Part shown: positions 1,632-43,044 of the stretch, piece after piece
Numbering within the stretch: position 1 is the stretch's first letter
How the letters are laid out: every line of letters begins with the position of its first letter
DNA from: a virus
Taxonomy: Duplodnaviria; Heunggongvirae; Uroviricota; Caudoviricetes
Length of the DNA: 47,953 bases
Direction: 5' to 3' (one strand)
IMG/VR virus record: IMGVR_UViG_2554235123_000011
Notes under the pieces: generated by a model
The model's database searches: none
Seen by the model: the letters and a program-made list of their open reading frames with translations, nothing else
What the model was told of the DNA's origin: nothing
Position numbers and translations under genes: made by a program

Positions 1632-4600
1632 TATGCAAGCCTCACAATATAGTTAAATGCGATGTTTTTGACGGTGTTTTCCGCGTTACCCGCAGCGTTA
1701 ACGGTGATGGTGTGTCCATGTGAACCAATCGCAACGGAGTGCGTATGCGCACCAATACCTACAGTATGTGCATGTGCGCCAGAACTTGCTGCAGTACCAG
1801 ACAGCGAGTGGGTATGAGCACCTGCTGACTGTGTCTGAATACGTTGATAATACGATCTATAGGAAGAAGTCTCCGGGCTTACTTGATACTGTGAATTCTG
1901 GACATAAGTGAACCCACCGCCATCATAAAATGCTAACGCAGAACCGCCGCCTCCTGGCCAACGAATACCATTACCATGAGTATGAACACCGGCAGACCCC
2001 GTAGAGCCACTCAGACTGTGCGTATGCGCCCCGGTGTTATTCGTGGATTTAGTGCCGTAATCAAACGACGATGTGGTTTTCGTCCCCAAATCCGTACTGG
2101 ATGCGCTGGCGCTGTGGGTGTGCGATTTTATGCCGTCCTGTTCCTGAGACAATACGGCCCGGCCACTGGCGGGTTTGCCCTTGATTGTCCAGCCGCGCAT
2201 ATCTGGAATAACACCTGAAGGATAGGCAATAGCCAGTTTCGGATATGCTGCCTTATCAAACGTCTGCCCCTGCATGATCGCATAACCTGCAGGTGGTGTA
2301 TCTGATGGCCACGGCAGCGGAACACCTGGCGGAAACGCTTCAATATTTGCCGAGCCGTCAAATTTTACGCCGTTAATTGTCCTTGCAGTTTGCAATTTGG
2401 TTGCTGTGCTTGCATTACCCGATAAAGATCCAGTGATACCACCACTCGCGTTTAATTTAGTTGCAATTGTAACATTGCCAGTATGGTTACTAATTATAAA
2501 CGGCCTTAAGCTATTGTGCGTACCAAGACTGTTACCCGAATCTGTCAACATAAAATATGTGTTTGATCCATCATTTCGGATAAAGAATCCATAGTTGCCA
2601 TAGGCAATACGCAGACCATTTGCTGACCTTGAAATAACCTCACCAGCAGCAGTTAAACCACCTGAAAGAGTCCCTCCAGTTAATGCCAATGCCCCAATAT
2701 TTGAAGGGGTCAATGTGATATTTGCACTACCATCAAATGACACACCGTTAATCGTTCTGGCTGCCTGAAGTTTCGTGGCGGTCGCAGCATTACCTGTAGT
2801 GTTTTGATTACCGGTAGCGTTGACTCCAGGCAAGTTGATATCTGCCGATCCATCAAATGCCACGCCCCCAATCTTACGTGCTGTCTTGATCTTGGTCGCA
2901 GTATCTGCGTTTCCGGTCAAATTACCAGTAACACTACCACCAACTTTTAGTCCATTACCGATGGACACCAACCCTGATCTTAAGTTTATAGAGAATGGTC
3001 TTAATGAACCGATGTCTCCATTTTCCCCCTCCCCTTCATTAGTCGGAATAAGATGAAGATGATCTTCGGAACGCCTAAAAATAAGGCCAAAGGCTTGGTT
3101 GAATATTCGAAGAGCATTTATCGTGCTGATTTTTAACTGCCCTCCCATTGTGTCGCCAGTTTTTTGAACTGAACTATCTTTAACAGTTTTAACTGCCTTT
3201 GGCGTTGCCGCCAGCTTTTCACTGGTGCTGTTTGTTGCACTGCTGAGCTGTACTATCCCCTTTTTCGTCGTGCTCGCATCCTCCAGCGCCACGGCGGATG
3301 CAATATCCTCTGCCCGTTTTGCTGCTGTCTCGGCGCGCGTTGCCGCGGATTCAGCAGCAACTTTGCTCTGAGATGCAGCCGTCGCACTGCCTGCCGCCTC
3401 TGATGCTTTCGTTGTTGCTGTCGTGGCACTACCTTTCGCTGCTGACGCTTGTCTGGTCGCCTCATCTTTTGAAGCAGACGCAGATGATGCCGATGACGCC
3501 GCTGAACTGGCTGACGATGCGGCTGCCGCCTTAGAGGAAGCAGCATTGTCTGCTGAAGTCTTTGCATTTGTTTCAGAGGTTTTTGCTGCAGAAGCAGACC
3601 TCGCTGCTGCAGTGGCTTGCTCAGTGGCTTTGCCAGCCTTCGTTGTGGCTGTTGAAGCGGATGATGCGGCGCTTTCTGCCGATTTTCCGGCGGCGGTGGC
3701 ACTGGCTGAGGCCTGCCCGGCACTTGTTGACGCGGCACTGGCAGATAATGCAGCCGCTGTTTTTGAACCTGCCGCAGCTGAGGCGCTCTGTCCCGCTGCT
3801 GTTTCAGAAGACTTAGCGTTCGTCTCGGACGTTTTTGCCGCCTTCGCGGAATTTCCTGCCGCCGTTGCCGAGGAAGCTGCACTACTGGCACTTGATGATG
3901 CATTCGTTTCTGAAGATTTCGCTGCCTCTTTTGAGGCCGCCGCACCCCGTGCCGAGGTGGCAGCTTCTGACGCCTTCATGGTCGCTGTGGATGCAGAAGT
4001 GGCTGCCGATTTTTGTGATGCTGCGGCATTCGTTTCTGACGTTTTCGCGGCACTGGCGCTGGTAGCTGCCGCGCTTTTTGATGACTCTGCAGCAGCAGCA
4101 CTTTTTGCTGCTTCACGGGCCTTTGTCGATGCCGTTCCTGCGCTGGAAGACGCTGACTGAGCCGACGACGCGGCCTGTCCGGCTGACGTGCTGGCGGCAC
4201 GTGCTGAGGCTGCAGCATCGGTTGCATGAGTTGCCGCCTCGCTGGCTGATGCACTGGCATCGCTGGCTGATTTTTTCGCGGCTGCCGTATTCTGTGCAAC
4301 CGCGGAGGCGTTACGTGACACCTCTTCCACCATCTGCTCAAAGCGGCGCAGTGCCTCCGGTCGGACATCATCCTCCGTCATGGCACCGAGAAAATCATTC
4401 AGCGTACCTGGTCTGGAACCTTCATAGACGGTAATGGTCCCGGCATGTGAAGGCGGAAAACCTTCAACCAGCAGGGTGACGCTGTACTGGCCATGCCCAA
4501 CATCCATGCTGTAACGTCCGGCTTCATCCGGATTTTCAGAGGCCACCGTGTTCACCACCACCGTGCTGCTGGTTCGTCTGGCCTTCAGCACAATGGTGCA

Positions 4601-4808: not shown

Positions 4809-5408
4809 TCAGAAACGGTATCCGATACCAACAATAAATGCATCCGTTCGCCAGTCGCCACTACCGGAACCTTCATAAGCAAGGTCAATGGTTACGGATT
4901 CGGTCGGGTTAAACTGCACGCCAGCCCCCCACGCCAGAGACGTGTTGCTGTGGCGACCGTCATCACTTCCGGTCAGCACATCGTGCGTTTTCCCCTTGTT
5001 GTCAGTTACGCGGAGATAATCCCCGGAGAAAGTCGACACACGGCTGTAAGCCACACCCACCATCGCATACGCGCTGAACCATTCATTCACGCGTACAGAC
5101 GGCCCCGCCATCACGCTGAACCAGCGGTTACGCACGGAATCTTCATGCCAGCGGGTATCGCTGTAGTGCGTTTTTTGCTCATCCTCAGCATTGGCATAAC
5201 TGAAGGACGTAATCAGCCCCAGCGCGTCCGTAAACTCATAACGGTATTTCACGTTAATCCCGTTCAGATTATCGCTGCCGGGAGCGTTCGTACGGGCATG
5301 AAGATACCCCGCGCTCAGTGTGGGCTGATGTTCAGACGCCCATGCAGGCGCACCGGATACGGACAGACAGATGGCTGCGGACAAAATGGCTGCACAAACT
5401 TTACGCAT
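4809..5408 (-). CDS. lom: Outer membrane protein Lom (Ail/Lom family, 199 aa, signal peptide)
   Basis: Signal peptide MRKVCAAILSAAICLSVSGAPAWA; C-terminal YEGSGSGDWRTDAFIVGIGYRF as in lambda Lom; located between J and stf. Confidence 0.9.
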   Translation of the reverse strand: MRKVCAAILSAAICLSVSGAPAWASEHQPTLSAGYLHARTNAPGSDNLNGINVKYRYEFTDALGLITSFSYANAEDEQKTHYSDTRWHEDSVRNRWFSVMAGPSVRVNEWFSAYAMVGVAYSRVSTFSGDYLRVTDNKGKTHDVLTGSDDGRHSNTSLAWGAGVQFNPTESVTIDLAYEGSGSGDWRTDAFIVGIGYRF

Positions 5409-25824: not shown

Positions 25825-26151
25825 TCAAGGACGTGACGGCGTAAAGATAAATTGTCTCTTCACTCCCTGACAGGGGCGATTCTTTTCAAATCGCCATTTC
25901 GCCATGGCCTTCACCACTTCATCACGAAACAAATTATGAGGCTCTGAGCGGAGAAAAACGATCCGTGTCACAGTCCCATCAGCACCAATATCGAACTTAA
26001 CCTCAACCAGCCCCTTGATATAATTTGCTGCAGCATATTCCGGATATCGTGGATACACCGTCACTAATTGCCGGGGCTCATCAGCTTTTTGCTGCGAGCA
26101 TCCCACTGCCAGGACAGATAACAGAAAAAGTAGTAAAAGGCGTCTTTTCAT
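25825..26151 (-). CDS. Lipoprotein with TonB C-terminal-like domain (108 aa)
   Basis: Lipobox LAVGC after MKRRLLLLFLLSV; YPRYPEYAAANYIKGLVEVKFDIGADGTV...FRDEVVKAMAKWRF aligns by eye to the TonB C-terminal domain; SD AGGAA upstream. Confidence 0.7.
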   Translation of the reverse strand: MKRRLLLLFLLSVLAVGCSQQKADEPRQLVTVYPRYPEYAAANYIKGLVEVKFDIGADGTVTRIVFLRSEPHNLFRDEVVKAMAKWRFEKNRPCQGVKRQFIFTPSRP

Positions 26152-26461
26152 TTTTATTCCTACGGGTCTTATTCTGACAATATATCCTGTGTTCCAGACT
26201 GCCACATCACCACATCCTGTGCCATTATCTGACTCACATTACATACATCGCATCGGGATACAGTAGTAGCACTTTCTGTAATACAGCTTCCTGTTTCTTC
26301 CACCATCGCACCGGGATAAACCCGCGAATCATTAACGCGGTAAAAACCCGGTGTGCATCGTTTTTAATTATCCCCGCACACTCGCGCAGAGGAGTCTCCC
26401 TGTCGGGCTGCGGTCTCTGTTAATGAGGGAATATAGCGACGATACGGCGCATCAACAAAAC

Positions 26462-26920
26462 TTATTTCAGGCACTGAGTGCGGATATAGTCCTGTGCCCC
26501 TTCCAGTTGCTTGTGCATCGTCATCAGCCGCTCTCTGAGGGTGAAATAATCCCGTGTAACGGTGTCTGCCAGTTGGGGGCCGGTTGCATTATCCACGCCG
26601 GAGGTGGTGGGGGCTTCACGCACGGAGCCTGGACAGGTGGCGTTGATCCGCAGGCGCTTACGACCAGCGGCAACGTCAGCGCGAAGAGTTTCATTTTCAG
26701 CTCTCGCATCGGCTAATTCCCTCGAGTATTTTGCATCGAGCGCAGCAACATCGCGCTGGCGCACCTGCATATCAGTAATGGTTGCGTTCGCCAGCTTCAG
26801 TTCACTGGCTTTGTTATCGCGCTGCGCTTTGTAGGTAATCGCGTTATCACGGTAATGGTCTGTTGCCATCCACAGCGCACCACAGGCCACCAGCAGAATA
26901 ACGATAAACGCGGAAAGCAT
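26462..26920 (-). CDS. Rz: Spanin inner-membrane subunit Rz (~152 aa)
   Basis: ...[14 protein letters not shown]...[29 protein letters not shown]... lambda Rz-like. Confidence 0.9.
26524..26709 (-). CDS. Rz1: Spanin outer-membrane lipoprotein Rz1, embedded in Rz in the +1 frame
   Basis: [17 protein letters not shown]...[30 protein letters not shown], lambda Rz1-like Pro-rich lipoprotein. Confidence 0.8.
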
Positions 26921-26931
26921 TCGGTTTATGT

Positions 26932-27063
26932 TCACCCCAGCAACCCCGACGAAGACAACATCATCCAGGCCATGGAAAGAAAAAGAGCAACCAGCATTAG
27001 TGAAAATGAAATGCCGACAATTACACAGAGGATCTTCGCCAGCGTTATGAGTTTGTCTGACAT
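26932..27063 (-). CDS. Small hydrophobic peptide (43 aa, one predicted TM helix) between R and Rz
   Basis: Strong SD AGGGAGGA before ATG 27063; [43 protein letters not shown]. Confidence 0.4.
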
Positions 27064-27077
27064 GCTTAATCCTCCCT

Positions 27078-27260
27078 TCACGATTTCAACGCAATGACCA
27101 GTTTTGCCAGCCCATACAGCATCGGGGACACAGCAACACCGACCGCCACCCACTTAATGGCAAAAGCCAGTGCTCTGCTGATGTCATCAGTTACAGGCGC
27201 TTTCAGTTCAAGGCCATTTTTCATAGTCAACCTCAACAGAATTCGTTTACACTTCGCCAT
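27078..27260 (-). CDS. Small membrane protein (60 aa, C-terminal TM helix) between R and Rz
   Basis: SD AGGGAGA before ATG 27260; [60 protein letters not shown]. Confidence 0.4.
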
Positions 27261-27416: not shown

Positions 27417-27950
27417 TTATCTGTCGATACCCCAGCACGCCAGCGCGCTCTCCTGGTCACGACGGGATACCTGACCGTAACAGTTGTTTGAACGAATACG
27501 GCAGTCTCTGCCACCGTCCTTAATCCACCAGCGAATCGCTTCGCAGGCACCTTTTCGATCACCAGCATTAATTCGTCTGTAAAACGTCGACGGGAAACAC
27601 TTACCGGGACCAATGTTGTACGGACAGAATGACGCGATCCCCGCTTTCTGGGGTTCGGTCAGCGGCACTCTGATGTTTTTCTCCACCCACGCCAGCGCTT
27701 TATCACGCTCAATGGCGTTAACCTGGTCGCATTTTTCCTTCGACAACTTCATGCCCGGAACGACAGGTTTGCCATCCACCATGATGGCACCACGGCAGAT
27801 GGTCCAGATACCTGCACCATCACGGTATGCCGTGGTGTGGTTGCCTTCCTTTTCATCCAGAAACTGGTCGAGAATGTCAGGCGCAGGCGCACCAGCGGCA
27901 ATCAGCGCCAGAACGGCAGCCGACAGGCCGTATTTGATTTTGGTGTTCAT
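27417..27950 (-). CDS. R: SAR endolysin (T4-lysozyme-type, GH24) R
   Basis: Gly/Ala-rich signal-anchor-release N-terminus YGLSAAVLALIAAGAPA; catalytic E-8aa-D-5aa-T spacing (EGNHTTAYRDGAGIWT). Confidence 0.85.
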   Translation of the reverse strand: MNTKIKYGLSAAVLALIAAGAPAPDILDQFLDEKEGNHTTAYRDGAGIWTICRGAIMVDGKPVVPGMKLSKEKCDQVNAIERDKALAWVEKNIRVPLTEPQKAGIASFCPYNIGPGKCFPSTFYRRINAGDRKGACEAIRWWIKDGGRDCRIRSNNCYGQVSRRDQESALACWGIDR

Positions 27951-27986
27951 GGATATATTAAATATTCAGCCGCTGTCCCTGGCCCA

Positions 27987-28880
27987 CTAAATACGCACTT
28001 TAAGATAAGTCAGCCCCGGATGAAGCCAGTAAGCCGGCCCTTTTTTAAAGGGTGGAGTATTAAAATCACGAAGAAGAGCCTCCCGCACAATTGCATCCTT
28101 ATCAGCACCACTGGCCAGCGCTTCAATCTCAGCGGCTACCTGAAGATATCCCATGCAACGGCCAACGCGCTTCATCAGCCCCTGCTTTTTATTGTTCTTC
28201 AGGTAATCAATGGCAAATTCAATGAGCTCCTCACTGTGCTGGTGCGATGGAGGTGTTACTTTCCCATTTTCTGAGATGGTTATTTTCCCAGCATCACCGG
28301 ATACAACAAAGGATGGCCGGTTACACTCCCATTCCGGGTCACTGAAATTATCATTATGAATACTGAAACACTCTGCGAGATTTCTGCTCATCACTTTCCG
28401 ACAATAATCGTCAAACGCAGCAAACTGCTTTTCATCGCCAGAAGGCACCAATATCGACCATTTCTTATTCAGCTCAACGACGTAGCTCTCCAGTTTTTCA
28501 ATACGTGATTCAACATCATCTTTTTCTGACCGCAGTGTTGACGGCGGCATCTTCAGAGAACAAGTAATTCTTCCCGGTAGCTTTCCTTTGTAGGTTATCA
28601 ACACATCCTGCGCCTCTAAAATTACGGGGCGCTTTTCCGGCAACGGTTCGTTCCATTCACATAACCCGGCAGCAACATCCATGAAAAACTGCTTCGCCTG
28701 CTTTTTCGCCTCAGCTTCGTAAAACTCCAGCGTGGCACCTTCAGTACGGTCAAGACTAATCGCCACATCTGGCAACAACAGCGACGCTTGCCCGTCACCT
28801 TCCGACTTCACAGTAACAGTAACCTTATCCCCGTAATTATTTATCCCCTTAACAACCAGTTCATATTTTTTATTCATCAC
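27987..28880 (-). CDS. Hypothetical protein (297 aa) inserted between pinholin and endolysin
   Basis: Long ORF with start abutting the S stop; no recognised motif. Confidence 0.6.
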   Translation of the reverse strand: MMNKKYELVVKGINNYGDKVTVTVKSEGDGQASLLLPDVAISLDRTEGATLEFYEAEAKKQAKQFFMDVAAGLCEWNEPLPEKRPVILEAQDVLITYKGKLPGRITCSLKMPPSTLRSEKDDVESRIEKLESYVVELNKKWSILVPSGDEKQFAAFDDYCRKVMSRNLAECFSIHNDNFSDPEWECNRPSFVVSGDAGKITISENGKVTPPSHQHSEELIEFAIDYLKNNKKQGLMKRVGRCMGYLQVAAEIEALASGADKDAIVREALLRDFNTPPFKKGPAYWLHPGLTYLKVRI

Positions 28881-28881
28881 T

Positions 28882-29097
28882 TTACTCTCCCCGCGCCGCC
28901 TTACGCCGGTCCTCTTTGATTTTGAAATACAGGTTAGTCAGATATGTCAGCAGCCCAAACAGCAGACTCCCCAGCACGCCTATTGCCGCCCACTGAGACG
29001 GGGAAACCCTGTCCAGCAACTGCAGGAACCAGTAGCCCGTTCCCACCGCTGACGTGGTGTATGACACACCTGTTGTGATTTTTTCCATCTGGTACAT
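28882..29097 (-). CDS. S: Pinholin S (phage 21 S21-like, 71 aa) with dual-start motif
   Basis: [10 protein letters not shown]...[41 protein letters not shown]; Met1 and Met4 dual starts; same length as S21. Confidence 0.85.
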
Positions 29098-29853: not shown

Positions 29854-30189
29854 ATGAAGTGGATTGTGATTGATACAGTTATCCAGCCATCATGCGGAAT
29901 ATCTTTTTCAGTCATATGGAGTAAAATAAAATTAATAATCTGGTATCAATCGGATGCTTTCTTACCTCCTGAAAGTATATTTACACTGACTCACACAGGT
30001 ATCATGCTCAATAACAAAGTGCTACCTGTAACCATTTACAACGTAGTACCATTCAATAAAACATTCTGGAATTTAATCAAAAACAGCCAGGAATGCCCTA
30101 CAAATACAGATAACGTATTGAATGAATGCTTTAATAACCGTTGCACTCTGCAAATATGTCCTTATGGGCTAAAACAACAAAGTCCATAA
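29854..30189 (+). CDS. Hypothetical AT-rich ORF (111 aa) oriented against the late operon
   Basis: Low-GC ORF with AAGGA SD; promoter-like GTTTAC...TATACT upstream (about 29787..29820). Confidence 0.35.
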
Positions 30190-30544
30190 GGAGTTTACTC
30201 ACATCTGACAAAATCAATATAAACAGCCCCTCCGGAGAGGGGCTGGAGAGTGGCGCTATGTGCCATTGCATGGTGCCGGGTGCCTCCCGGTGAATTCAGT
30301 ACCAGCACCTGAATCCGCGATTATCCCATATACCTACTCGCTGATTGCCCCTCCGCACAGGGGGATTCACCATGCCAGTTTCTTTTAACAAACTCCCCGC
30401 AAACCAGACAACAGTCAACCGCCTGAATTGTGAAGTATTTAAAAATTTCTCCCGCTAACTGATACCCGGCTAACAGTCTGGCGTTTTCTTTTTCAGCAAC
30501 GGGAAAGCAACAACCACCACACCCACCAGCCGCCCATTTACCAC

Positions 30545-30968: not shown

Positions 30969-31658
30969 TTAATTGACTTTTGCAATATCTCGTCGTGAAA
31001 AGGTCGCTTTTTGTTGCGCTCTTATTTTCACGGAGCAAATCAAGGATTCTCTATCGAGGCGCTTAAAAATATCGCACATCTCACGCCAGTAGTTCGCATA
31101 ATTATGGCTCCAGTTATCAGGCTTAACTCCACACAGTCTGGCAAGCTCCTGTCTCTGGTAGACCTCACACCCGGTAACCCATCCTCTGACATCCTGTGCC
31201 GCCAGCCAGATCAACTTCTTCACACGCTCCAGCGTTTTCACTGCAATTTTTCTGGAGCCGGACTGAGTTTTAAATTCACTCCACCCCCACTGCGTTATCG
31301 CGATCTGATGCTCCCAGCAAATGTTTCCGCCATAACACCACAACAACCACGCCTTCTGATGTTCTTCCAGTTCCAGAACAGCACGCCGCCACGATGATGT
31401 TGCAAACTCAACAGGACTGACCAGCGCAATTGATGAGCCTTTCGCCAGTGATTGTTTACCCTGGATCGGGGGATTATCCCGCGTGATCATTTTTCCGGTT
31501 ACCTCATCGCGGTAACGAATTTTTTTGCGTCTGTAACGCCCTGTATCGAACAGGGCATTTTCCTGCCAGGCTTCCAGCTGGCATTTTGTCGACCCACTGA
31601 GATCTGCAGTGGCAATCATGAGTTGCTCACGAACAAACTGTAAATACTGGTTATTCAT
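30969..31658 (-). CDS. Late-gene antiterminator Q (~229 aa)
   Basis: Position between rusA and the lysis cassette; not lambda-Q-like in sequence; SD GAGGTGGG before ATG. Confidence 0.6.
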   Translation of the reverse strand: MNNQYLQFVREQLMIATADLSGSTKCQLEAWQENALFDTGRYRRKKIRYRDEVTGKMITRDNPPIQGKQSLAKGSSIALVSPVEFATSSWRRAVLELEEHQKAWLLWCYGGNICWEHQIAITQWGWSEFKTQSGSRKIAVKTLERVKKLIWLAAQDVRGWVTGCEVYQRQELARLCGVKPDNWSHNYANYWREMCDIFKRLDRESLICSVKIRAQQKATFSRRDIAKVN

Positions 31659-32019
31659 GCACACCCACCTCTGTAATTCTTATCTCCAGCCGTCCACCAG
31701 ATACTGGCTGGCCACGTACAATATTGATTTCATCAAACTGCTCATCGTCCATTAACAACCCCGCGTGCGTCAGCGCATCCAGTGGTGCTTTCAGAATATT
31801 GTCCAGGTCACGACGACGCTTATCCGGTGGCTCTGCAATAATTTTTATTGCCAGCCGTCCGGACAGGCTTAATTTCAGTCGCTGCTGGCGAACAATAAGC
31901 GCCACTGCCCGGCGATAACGCTCCCCGGCTTTTGATACAAAATATGTGCTGCCACGGCGTCGCCAGTAAGTGTTCACCGTCGGCGAGTAAGGCAAAACAA
32001 ATTCTATGCGTTCGGTCAT
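31651..32019 (-). CDS. rusA: Holliday junction resolvase RusA (122 aa)
   Basis: ...PPDKRRRDLDNILKAPLDALTHAGLLMDDEQ...GGRLEIRITE matches the RusA catalytic region. Confidence 0.9.
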   Translation of the reverse strand: MTERIEFVLPYSPTVNTYWRRRGSTYFVSKAGERYRRAVALIVRQQRLKLSLSGRLAIKIIAEPPDKRRRDLDNILKAPLDALTHAGLLMDDEQFDEINIVRGQPVSGGRLEIRITEVGVHE

Positions 32020-33892: not shown

Positions 33893-34048
33893 TTACTCCT
33901 CAGGTTCGTAAGCTGTGAAGACAGCGACCTCCGTCTGGCCGGTTCGGATTCGTACCTCGCAGAGGTCTTTCCTCGTTACCAGTGCCGTCACTATGACGGT
34001 TAAACAGATGACGATCAGGGCGATTAACATCGCCTTTTGCTGCTTCAT
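33893..34048 (-). CDS. hokD: Hok/Gef-family type I toxin (51 aa)
   Basis: MKQQKAMLIALIVICLTVIVTALVTRKDLCEVRIRTGQTEVAVFTAYEPEE, as remembered for HokD/RelF. Confidence 0.85.
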   Translation of the reverse strand: MKQQKAMLIALIVICLTVIVTALVTRKDLCEVRIRTGQTEVAVFTAYEPEE

Positions 34049-34309
34049 AGCCTGCTTCTCCTTGACCTTTCGGCCCGTAAGAGGCTAACCTACATGTGTC
34101 TAGCATGAAATATGGCCTCAGATTAATGTTAAGCGTCTTGCAGGACGCGTAATGTTAACTGGGGCTTTTCTCTATCTGCCTTTTGGTGTTCATGCCTGAG
34201 ACAGATAGCCTCAAGCACCCGCAGTTATTCTACTTAACTAAGATTTCCCCGCAAACCGTTTTTGTCCGGCACAGTAAATATCCAACTAAACCAATGGCGT
34301 TCGCTGTAT

Positions 34310-42217: not shown

Positions 42218-42516
42218 TTTATTCACAGGTGAGGTAGAGTGCGTGCGCCGGACACGGATAAGAATCCGGCACTGACAGTTTACTAAAAAGGATATATCCC
42301 TGAAAAGTCAGGGCATAACACGAAAGCGCCCGGCGAAGTTAGTCTCTCTGTATAGGTCGTCGTTAAATTTAATTCGATCGTGCGCTTCCGGTTGTGGCAA
42401 TCCGCGAAATGGCGCGGCGGTAAGTATGGCTGGGGTTTCCTCCATTGCTCCAGAAAATGCACCGGGTTGTCAGGTTGACCATACGCTTAAGTGACAGCCC
42501 CGCCACAATACCCATG

Positions 42517-42569
42517 TGTAGTCTTTGGTGGCATCAGTTCTACTCCGTGACTGCTCTGCCACCCTTTTT
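42517..42569 (+). ncRNA. dicF: DicF small RNA homologue
   Basis: tttggtggcatcagttctactccgtgactgctctgccacccttttt: conserved core TACTCCGTGACTGCTCTGCC and terminal hairpin GGTGGC/GCCACC plus T5. Confidence 0.8.
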
Positions 42570-42852
42570 AAAGTGAATTTTGTGATGCGGTGAATGCGGC
42601 TAAGCGCACGCGGAACAGTTAAAACCAAAAACAGTGTTATGGGTGGATTCTCTGTATCCGGCGTTAATTGTTAACTGGTTAACGTCACCTGGAGGCACCA
42701 GGCACCGCATCAACAAAGTTCACTTCGGTGATGAAAGGTAAGAGAAAATGTTGAATGTAGCTATTGAAAACCAGAACGGGTGGAATTATAGTGCACCTGC
42801 ACCTCATAAAACGGGTGCCGGGCGTGGAAACCCGGAATTCAATCAAGCGCAT

Positions 42853-42877
42853 AACCGCGCTCAGGCGGTTTTTTTAT
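42853..42877 (+). terminator. Intrinsic terminator-like hairpin between DicF and the Rha-like gene
   Basis: AACCGC-gctcag-GCGGTT followed by TTTTTTT. Confidence 0.45.
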
Positions 42878-43044
42878 GCGTCAAGCACAGCCACATTCAG
42901 ATTATGGTGGGGCGTGCAGGGCAGCTGCAAGGCTGGCCGGATTCTTGGTTGACCGGTATTTCCACCCCTGTACGCCTCACCACCCTTATGGTCGTGGAAA
43001 ACCTTGGTGGTGAGTTATTAATACTCAACCAAGAGGCTGCCATT

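Follow-up and report, generated by a model that had tools for sequence, protein, structure and literature searches.

A full-length YdfR (DUF1327) family gene between the holin and endolysin genes of a lambdoid prophage, and its possible link to RNase E

The stretch of viral DNA studied here, an Escherichia coli prophage referred to as the window (47,953 nt; IMG/VR record IMGVR_UViG_2554235123_000011, Caudoviricetes), shares 99.97% identity with what looks like a complete lambdoid prophage, from the integrase through the tail fibres, in strain 2017C-4173W12. On its minus strand lie S (28882..29097), which encodes a 71-aa class II (P21-type) holin matching PF04971 'Bacteriophage P21 holin S' (E 7.2e-33) as well as phrog_9876 and phrog_20 (holin), and R (27417..27950, ATG at 27950), which encodes a lysozyme (PF00959, E 2.4e-24) with a signal-anchor-release (SAR)-like N-terminus. 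Between them is an open reading frame (ORF) at 27987..28880, designated here as the wedged gene. An initial annotation had placed a 297-aa ORF at these positions, 1–4 nt past the S stop; the coordinates were borne out, and the strand, which it had left unstated, is minus. Judging from its sequence, the wedged gene is almost certainly a full-length member of the YdfR/DUF1327 family and an accessory gene. As an entity it is already known, being a catalogued family member in its usual place; the remaining interest lies in its C-terminal module, in the correspondence of the Escherichia coli K-12 protein to the N-terminal domain only, and in a possible link to the host ribonuclease RNase E.

The ORF comprises 297 codons when counted from GTG at 28880 and 296 when counted from ATG at 28877, and ends with the stop codon TAG at 27989-27987. 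The S stop codon TAA (28884-28882) is separated from the GTG by 1 nt and from the ATG by 4 nt. A Shine-Dalgarno sequence (GGGAGA) is located within the final S codons, 8 nt 5' of ATG 28877, which is more likely than GTG 28880 to be the start. The coupling junction (28878..28892, minus strand) consists of the Shine-Dalgarno sequence GGGGAGAG in the final S codons, the S stop TAA, the 4-nt spacer and the ATG. The same S junction serves each occupant of the S-R slot that we examined, all of which start 3–4 nt past the S stop, and it serves R itself in 933W, in which S and R are directly adjacent and joined by the same GGGGAGAG-TAA-4 nt-ATG arrangement. These observations support the translational coupling of the wedged gene to S. 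Given that R of 933W uses the S-embedded Shine-Dalgarno sequence, the wedged gene has taken over the initiation site that serves R there, leaving R with a 36-nt leader. This AT-rich spacer (27951..27986, minus strand) is also present in Stx2_95 and in locus L017; the initial annotation was right that the ORF ends before R, and the gap of 37 nt that it gave is corrected to 36 nt. No recognisable Shine-Dalgarno sequence was found in the 36-nt leader, the best match to AGGAGG being 2/6. The R protein encoded behind an occupied slot begins MNTKI..., and the R allele of 933W begins MSRKL... From these sequence features, the translation of R may depend on the wedged gene.

A consensus scan of the minus strand from 29200 to 27950 detected no sigma-70-like promoter, a result that is not conclusive, and the only hairpin on the coding strand between S and R is a weak one at 28028-28011, inside the 3' end of the wedged ORF. 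The wedged gene would thus be transcribed with the Q-dependent late operon from the late promoter. The GC content of the gene is 46.3%, compared with 54.2–54.9% for S, R and Rz. As the initial annotation had stated, its product has no transmembrane segment: the maximal 19-residue Kyte-Doolittle mean (KD19) reaches 0.75, against values of 1.70 in S and 1.74 in the SAR segment of R. It also lacks a signal sequence. The R N-terminus is weakly hydrophobic, with its KD19 maximum at residue 9, and carries an E-8-D-5-T motif at residue 35.

The family assignment rests on several profile and sequence matches. Residues 1–100 match Pfam PF07041 (DUF1327) with 137.9 bits (cut-off 25; E 1.3e-40) over profile positions 1–88 of 93, and residues 2–297 match phrog_1085, to which no function is assigned, over its full length (E 7.6e-190, profile positions 1–296 of 296). 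The RefSeq name of the gene is 'YdfR family protein', and BLASTP aligned the N-terminal domain (N-domain) with K-12 YdfR at 47% identity over aa 1–74 (E 6e-21). The initial annotation had reported no recognisable motif, which the DUF1327 match at the N-terminus contradicts. It had also regarded the ORF as an unrecognised cargo gene within the lysis cassette; an extra gene it is, since S and R are adjacent in 933W, but it belongs to the catalogued YdfR family and occupies the same place as ydfR in K-12. On homology to a well-characterised protein, which that annotation had left to database searches, the answer is divided: a homolog, YdfR, was found, but YdfR is itself barely characterised. Beyond these matches, scans of the wedged protein against NCBIfam and PADLOC returned noise only (best PADLOC E 0.018, to PbeC, in the coiled-coil region), and among 45 family members Pfam and PADLOC showed no recurrent match other than DUF1327 and coiled-coil noise. 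The PHROG matches were all of 'unknown function' and the only Pfam match was DUF1327, so that no homology to a lysis-category PHROG or Pfam family was detected. Neither the single protein nor a 45-sequence profile retrieved anything below E 0.3 in PDB sequence searches, and no functional study of the long YdfR form was found in the literature searched.

The family is very common. At least 1000 contigs encode exactly the same 296 aa. Megablast of the gene matched 6,175 places in 2,703 of the 5,426 complete E. coli genomes searched, in many cases in several prophages of the same genome; in 496 genomes a match covers at least 80% of the gene. By comparison, the S gene matched 8,950 places in 2,466 genomes. 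An exhaustive HMMER search over 1.84 billion representative proteins returned only 74 with E <= 1e-3, and the named relatives came from Escherichia/Shigella and Salmonella enterica. The taxonomic range is taken from these protein searches; a contig scan by a single peptide pattern gave three loci only.

The profile matches, the exact copies and the ratio of nonsynonymous to synonymous substitution rates (dN/dS) rule out a chance ORF and identify a real gene. The dN/dS value is 0.38 against the Stx2_95 homolog (0.22 for the C-terminal module) and 0.62 against that of phage 86 (0.38 for the C-terminal module), indicating purifying selection on the intact ORF. In the RefSeq record of strain 2017C-4173W12, whose copy (NZ_CP030768.1, 3953428-3954321) is 100% identical to window positions 27987-28880, the prokaryotic genome annotation pipeline (PGAP) marks codons 1–112 alone, calling them a pseudogene ('YdfR family protein, missing C-terminus'), and leaves ~590 bp unannotated; in other genomes, unlike in this copy, the full 296 aa are annotated. 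We rejected the pseudogene reading, given an uninterrupted ORF that evolves under purifying selection; the call is an artefact of a PGAP model that covers the N-domain only.

The protein is divided into four parts, all encoded on the minus strand. The N-domain (DUF1327; aa 1–76, 28650..28877) is modelled as three beta-strands and a long helix, with predicted local distance difference test (pLDDT) values of 70–90. It is followed by a basic linker (aa 77–118, 28524..28649; pI 9.9) that is predicted to be disordered (pLDDT <40) and is conserved within E. coli, and by a helical, coiled-coil-like hairpin (aa 119–176, 28350..28523) with modelled helices at 119–146 and 149–176. The length of the hairpin varies among alleles through insertions and deletions, and E130, L136 and K138 are invariant or nearly so. 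The C-terminal module (C-module; aa 185–296, 27990..28325) is modelled as three short strands and three to four helices, with pLDDT values of 72–93 for residues 185–275; its tail past residue 275 is conserved and has low model confidence. The AlphaFold model used here was built from an alignment including Salmonella relatives and has a mean pLDDT of 64.7, which makes it usable for the two compact domains; a first model from a shallow, E. coli-only alignment (mean pLDDT 48) was discarded.

The C-module is the part of the protein under the strongest constraint. H214, L226, G239, L245, Q246, P276 and K278 are invariant in both alignments (A3 and A4), and R240, G243, A248, A249, W284, P287, G288, Y291 and L292 are either invariant or conserved at 90% or more. 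In the protein as a whole, candidates for a conserved partner interface are the helix start EGATLEFYEAEA and the group H214/R240/Q246/W284. Pfam scans and fold searches gave neither a Pfam model nor a fold match for the C-module. The similar order of secondary-structure elements in the N-domain and the C-module had suggested an internal duplication, which was rejected on the basis of an hhalign probability of 0.1.

To place the gene in its lineage, we surveyed 80 IMG/VR loci with a near-identical S allele (97–100% identity), 71 of which contain R. Modules of the YdfR family occupy the S-R slot in 59 of these 71 loci, and the slot is empty in 12. An occupied slot is thus the norm in this lineage, contrary to the premise of the initial annotation that holin and endolysin genes normally adjoin each other. 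Among the occupied slots, 28 contain the N-domain and the middle part, 12 the complete N-middle-C form, 7 the middle part and C-module only, and 4 the N-domain only, while the rest have other combinations; 9 of the 12 complete loci have exactly the 931-nt spacing of the window. Many Stx-type prophages (Stx, Shiga toxin) carry a 213-aa middle+C gene followed by a separate 75-aa DUF1327 gene in the slot, and other prophages have only a 185-aa middle+C gene with no DUF1327 partner. The occurrence of modules as separate genes indicates that they are genetically separable. Most likely, the S/R junction is a recombination-prone slot in the P21-type lysis cassettes of E. coli lambdoid prophages. The absence of the gene from 933W, the 12 empty slots and the many relatives with one module only show that the gene is not part of the core lysis machinery.

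Long forms closely related to the wedged protein, which make up phrog_1085, are found in Stx phages (Stx2-converting phage 86 orf5/YP_794052 and Stx2_95 BCI50300); they share its N-hairpin-C order and its slot and are 80–88% identical to it. In phage 86 the protein (268 aa) is missing most of its hairpin, and the next gene is the convergent gp06 (104 aa); the Stx2_95 form (329 aa) contains a 33-aa insertion. GenBank contains 370 phage records with a match to the S-R region, and 100 records encode the N-domain; the C-module is present in only five, namely phage 86 (two), Stx2_95 and two Stx2_12E129 prophages. The slot content tracks the Stx phage type: the N-domain is encoded in 41 Stx1a records for 47 S-R matches, in 15 Stx2c records for 17 and in 2 Stx2a records for 124. 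The family occurs in many Shiga-toxin phages and is expressed from the very late operon that drives Stx production and lysis.

Homologs in Salmonella enterica prophages (e.g., P0198, P0202 and P0204) are ~28% identical overall and retain the N-hairpin-C architecture. Their C-modules are ~40–46% identical to that of the wedged protein and share its invariant residues, and their N-domains are homologous at the profile level (probability 91%) but fall below the Pfam DUF1327 threshold. As in the window, the genes are tripartite and lie in the late region 3' of Q. However, they are located upstream of the holin gene, rather than between holin and endolysin, and are separated from it by a convergent ORF; the neighbouring holin belongs to PF16080 in two of the three loci and to PF04971 in the other. 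The feature that is conserved is therefore late-operon placement beside lysis genes, and the position of the Salmonella copies shows that the S-R wedge itself is non-essential. Because Salmonella retains both the architecture and the invariant C-module residues, the long form looks ancestral and K-12 YdfR looks like a remnant.

In Salmonella, as in some phages of E. coli, the convergent gene of ~100 aa lies directly 3' of the YdfR-like gene (at 2249-2563, plus strand, in L003 and 4832-5149, minus strand, in L012, and also in L005, L009, L011 and L015). The product of gp06 of phage 86 is 48% identical to its Salmonella counterpart (E 2e-35), so that this ORF is better conserved than the YdfR-like proteins, and no Pfam family was found for it. 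An obligatory partnership between the two genes was rejected, since the convergent ORF is missing from the window and present in just 5 of the 59 occupied slots.

K-12 YdfR (P76160, b1555) is encoded in the same slot of the cryptic prophage Qin, in the order essQ-ydfR-rrrQ-rzpQ and behind the same post-S junction, and both it and the wedged protein match PF07041. The K-12 protein has 103 aa, comprising DUF1327 and 29 unrelated residues, and is without the linker, hairpin and C-module of the wedged protein; the ydfR stop overlaps the rrrQ ATG, whereas the window has the 36-nt spacer before R. The K-12 protein used in the sole experimental study thus represents no more than the N-domain of a longer, conserved protein, and it is for this K-12 form only that binding of RNase E and RNA is documented. 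A bacterial two-hybrid (BACTH) screen with RNase G picked up residues 1–72 of K-12 YdfR, a fragment that was also positive with RNase E; full-length YdfR interacted with Rne1-597 and co-purified Rne1-598, and RNA co-eluted (PMC13232886). Overproduction of K-12 YdfR altered few transcripts, and ydfR is nearly silent in the lysogen (PMC13232886). In a separate screen, YdfR overexpression raised the minimum inhibitory concentration of streptomycin three-fold (PMC12924614). The wedged protein is 47% identical to K-12 YdfR across the RNase E-binding fragment.

By analogy with these data, we tentatively propose, as the leading explanation, that the product of the wedged gene is a dispensable accessory protein of the cytoplasm, expressed late, which uses DUF1327 to dock on RNase E and the C-module as an effector or partner-binding domain; we consider this possible rather than probable. 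Under this proposal, a dispensable, promoterless accessory gene in the S/R slot would be transcribed in the Q-dependent late operon and translated from the S-embedded Shine-Dalgarno sequence, giving a cytoplasmic protein that is made alongside the holin in the late phase of the lytic cycle. The N-domain would dock on the catalytic half of host RNase E, as it does for the short K-12 YdfR, the central helical hairpin would oligomerise and the C-module would supply an effector or partner-binding activity. Together these parts would modulate RNA decay in late infection, rather than disrupt the membrane or the cell wall. The present analysis shows the identity and architecture of the gene, its junction, its distribution and the purifying selection on it; the binding of RNase E by the wedged protein, the importance of that binding to the phage and the activity of the C-module are inferred. 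If the RNase E link is true for the long form, host RNA decay would be tied to late gene expression in lambdoid and Stx phages.

Several points weigh against this proposal. The RNase E interaction data concern only the 103-aa K-12 protein and come from a two-hybrid screen; the full-length YdfR fusion was positive only with Rne1-597, and its overproduction had little transcriptional effect (PMC13232886). For the C-module, the best-conserved part, no homolog with a known function or fold was detected, so that its activity is a guess. Moreover, C-module-only genes occur without a DUF1327 partner, which implies that the conserved function may not need docking on RNase E. Finally, the structural model is only moderate (mean pLDDT 64.7).

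Phage proteins that modulate RNase E include Srd of T4 and gp0.7 of T7. The likeness that we propose is to Dip/gp37 of phiKZ, a phage protein that binds host RNase E and alters RNA decay in infection (PMC4980113; PMC13232886); Dip is a precedent in function and no relative (PMC4980113). No homology to Dip, Srd or gp0.7 was detected in the PDB sequence or fold searches. The binding sites also differ: Dip binds the RNA-binding segments of the RNase E scaffold, whereas K-12 YdfR binds the N-terminal half of the enzyme. In addition, Dip, Srd and gp0.7 belong to virulent phages, and we do not claim membership of their group for the wedged protein. A further-reaching version of the proposal, which is speculative and which we hold to be rather unlikely, is that long YdfR is an ancestral bipartite phage adaptor, with DUF1327 on the catalytic half of RNase E and the C-module recruiting or blocking specific RNAs or partners, which, shortly before the cell lyses, would tune the decay of late transcripts, among them the lysis mRNAs and the toxin mRNAs of Stx phages. 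K-12 YdfR would then be a truncated relic, which would explain its weak phenotype. If this version is true, the protein would be the first known instance of an RNase E modulator in temperate lambdoid phages, and the C-module would represent a new domain family.

Other explanations compete with this proposal; direct support was found neither for lysis regulation, which is suggested by position only, nor for defence. The suggestion of the initial annotation that it regulates lysis could take two forms: a cytoplasmic protein made roughly in step with S might bind the charged, cytoplasmic C-terminal tail of the pinholin or the membrane-tethered SAR endolysin and thereby delay or sharpen triggering, or the gene might act in cis by diverting the strong S-embedded Shine-Dalgarno sequence away from R, which would reduce R translation. 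Other phages have lysis modulators that are cytoplasmic (T4 RIII and P1 LydB), and both the position of the wedged gene and its coupling to S suit such a role. E. coli family members lie almost exclusively in the S-R slot, and R, which uses the S-embedded Shine-Dalgarno sequence in 933W, is without one when the slot is occupied. Nevertheless, the protein resembles no lysis-category family and has no membrane segment, and the slot is empty or contains fragments only in many relatives with a near-identical S (97–100%). The cassette of 933W, without the gene, is complete with S, R and Rz/Rz1. The Salmonella homologs further weaken the suggestion, lying upstream of the holin and beside either holin family, PF16080 as well as PF04971, which argues against a holin-specific pairing. 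We regard a lysis-timing regulator as unlikely.

An origin in conflict between phages, with the gene as defence, superinfection-exclusion or anti-defence cargo in a late-region hot spot, would fit its atypical GC content (46% versus 54–55%), the extremely mosaic, present-or-absent content of the slot, a pattern known from accessory hot spots, and the ant, KilA-N and methyltransferase genes carried in neighbouring slots. Anti-defence genes usually act early, and late expression would be atypical for them. The defence or anti-defence role that the initial annotation had raised finds no PADLOC match for the wedged protein or its 45 relatives and no promoter of its own in the consensus scan, and K-12 ydfR is almost without reads in lysogens (PMC13232886), in which prophage defence genes are normally expressed; we consider it improbable. 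The gene does share with lambdoid morons (bor, lom, stx and nanS-p) its non-essential insertion in the late region, its atypical GC content and its variable presence in close relatives. Classical morons, however, are autonomous transcription units with a promoter and a terminator, often active in the lysogen; neither element was found for the wedged gene, which is coupled to S. That the gene is a functionless decaying or selfish remnant, persisting because the slot tolerates insertions, would agree with the excess of partial over full-length forms (N-M 28, N 4 and M-C 7 versus N-M-C 12; M, middle part), with the PGAP pseudogene call on a 100%-identical copy and with the slight effect of K-12 YdfR overproduction (PMC13232886). 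Against it stand the intact ORF with a C-module dN/dS of 0.22, the architecture and invariant residues kept from E. coli to Salmonella at ~28% identity, and the exact allele in at least 1000 contigs; the PGAP call is the artefact of an N-domain-only model. A mere remnant is the most improbable of these explanations.

Upstream of the lysis genes, the small RNA STnc100 (Rfam, 132 bits) maps to 30215-30404 on the minus strand, downstream of Q (30969-31664, minus), and its 3' end coincides with a strong hairpin at 30245-30224; STnc100 is probably the terminated late-leader transcript. The iraM anti-adapter gene (29854-30189, plus strand) lies just beyond STnc100 on the opposite strand, so that a late transcript antiterminated by Q would cross iraM in antisense on its way to S. 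On the other side of R are the Rz spanin gene (26462..26935, minus; PF03245, E 2e-47; phrog_13) and, embedded in it, Rz1 (26524-26709, minus), an ORF with a lipobox-like LVVSAC. The R-Rz gap (window 26932-27260) contains two minus-strand ORFs, of 60 aa (27078-27260) and 43 aa (26932-27063), with strongly hydrophobic segments of KD19 1.88 and 2.89, respectively. It represents a second insertion slot, in which relatives carry ant, KilA-N or N6/N4 methyltransferase genes. Just 3' of Rz is an ORF for a 'TonB family protein' (25825-26205, minus) with a lipoprotein-like signal, MKRRLLLLFLLSVLAVGC, at the position of bor in lambda and 933W. No tRNA genes were found in the window. The remaining Rfam matches are DicF, IsrK and C4 antisense RNAs, which cluster in the immunity/early-left region (42513-42987, plus), sok beside hokD (34046-34220, minus) and the IS009 RNA near the tail-fibre end (1090-1288, minus).

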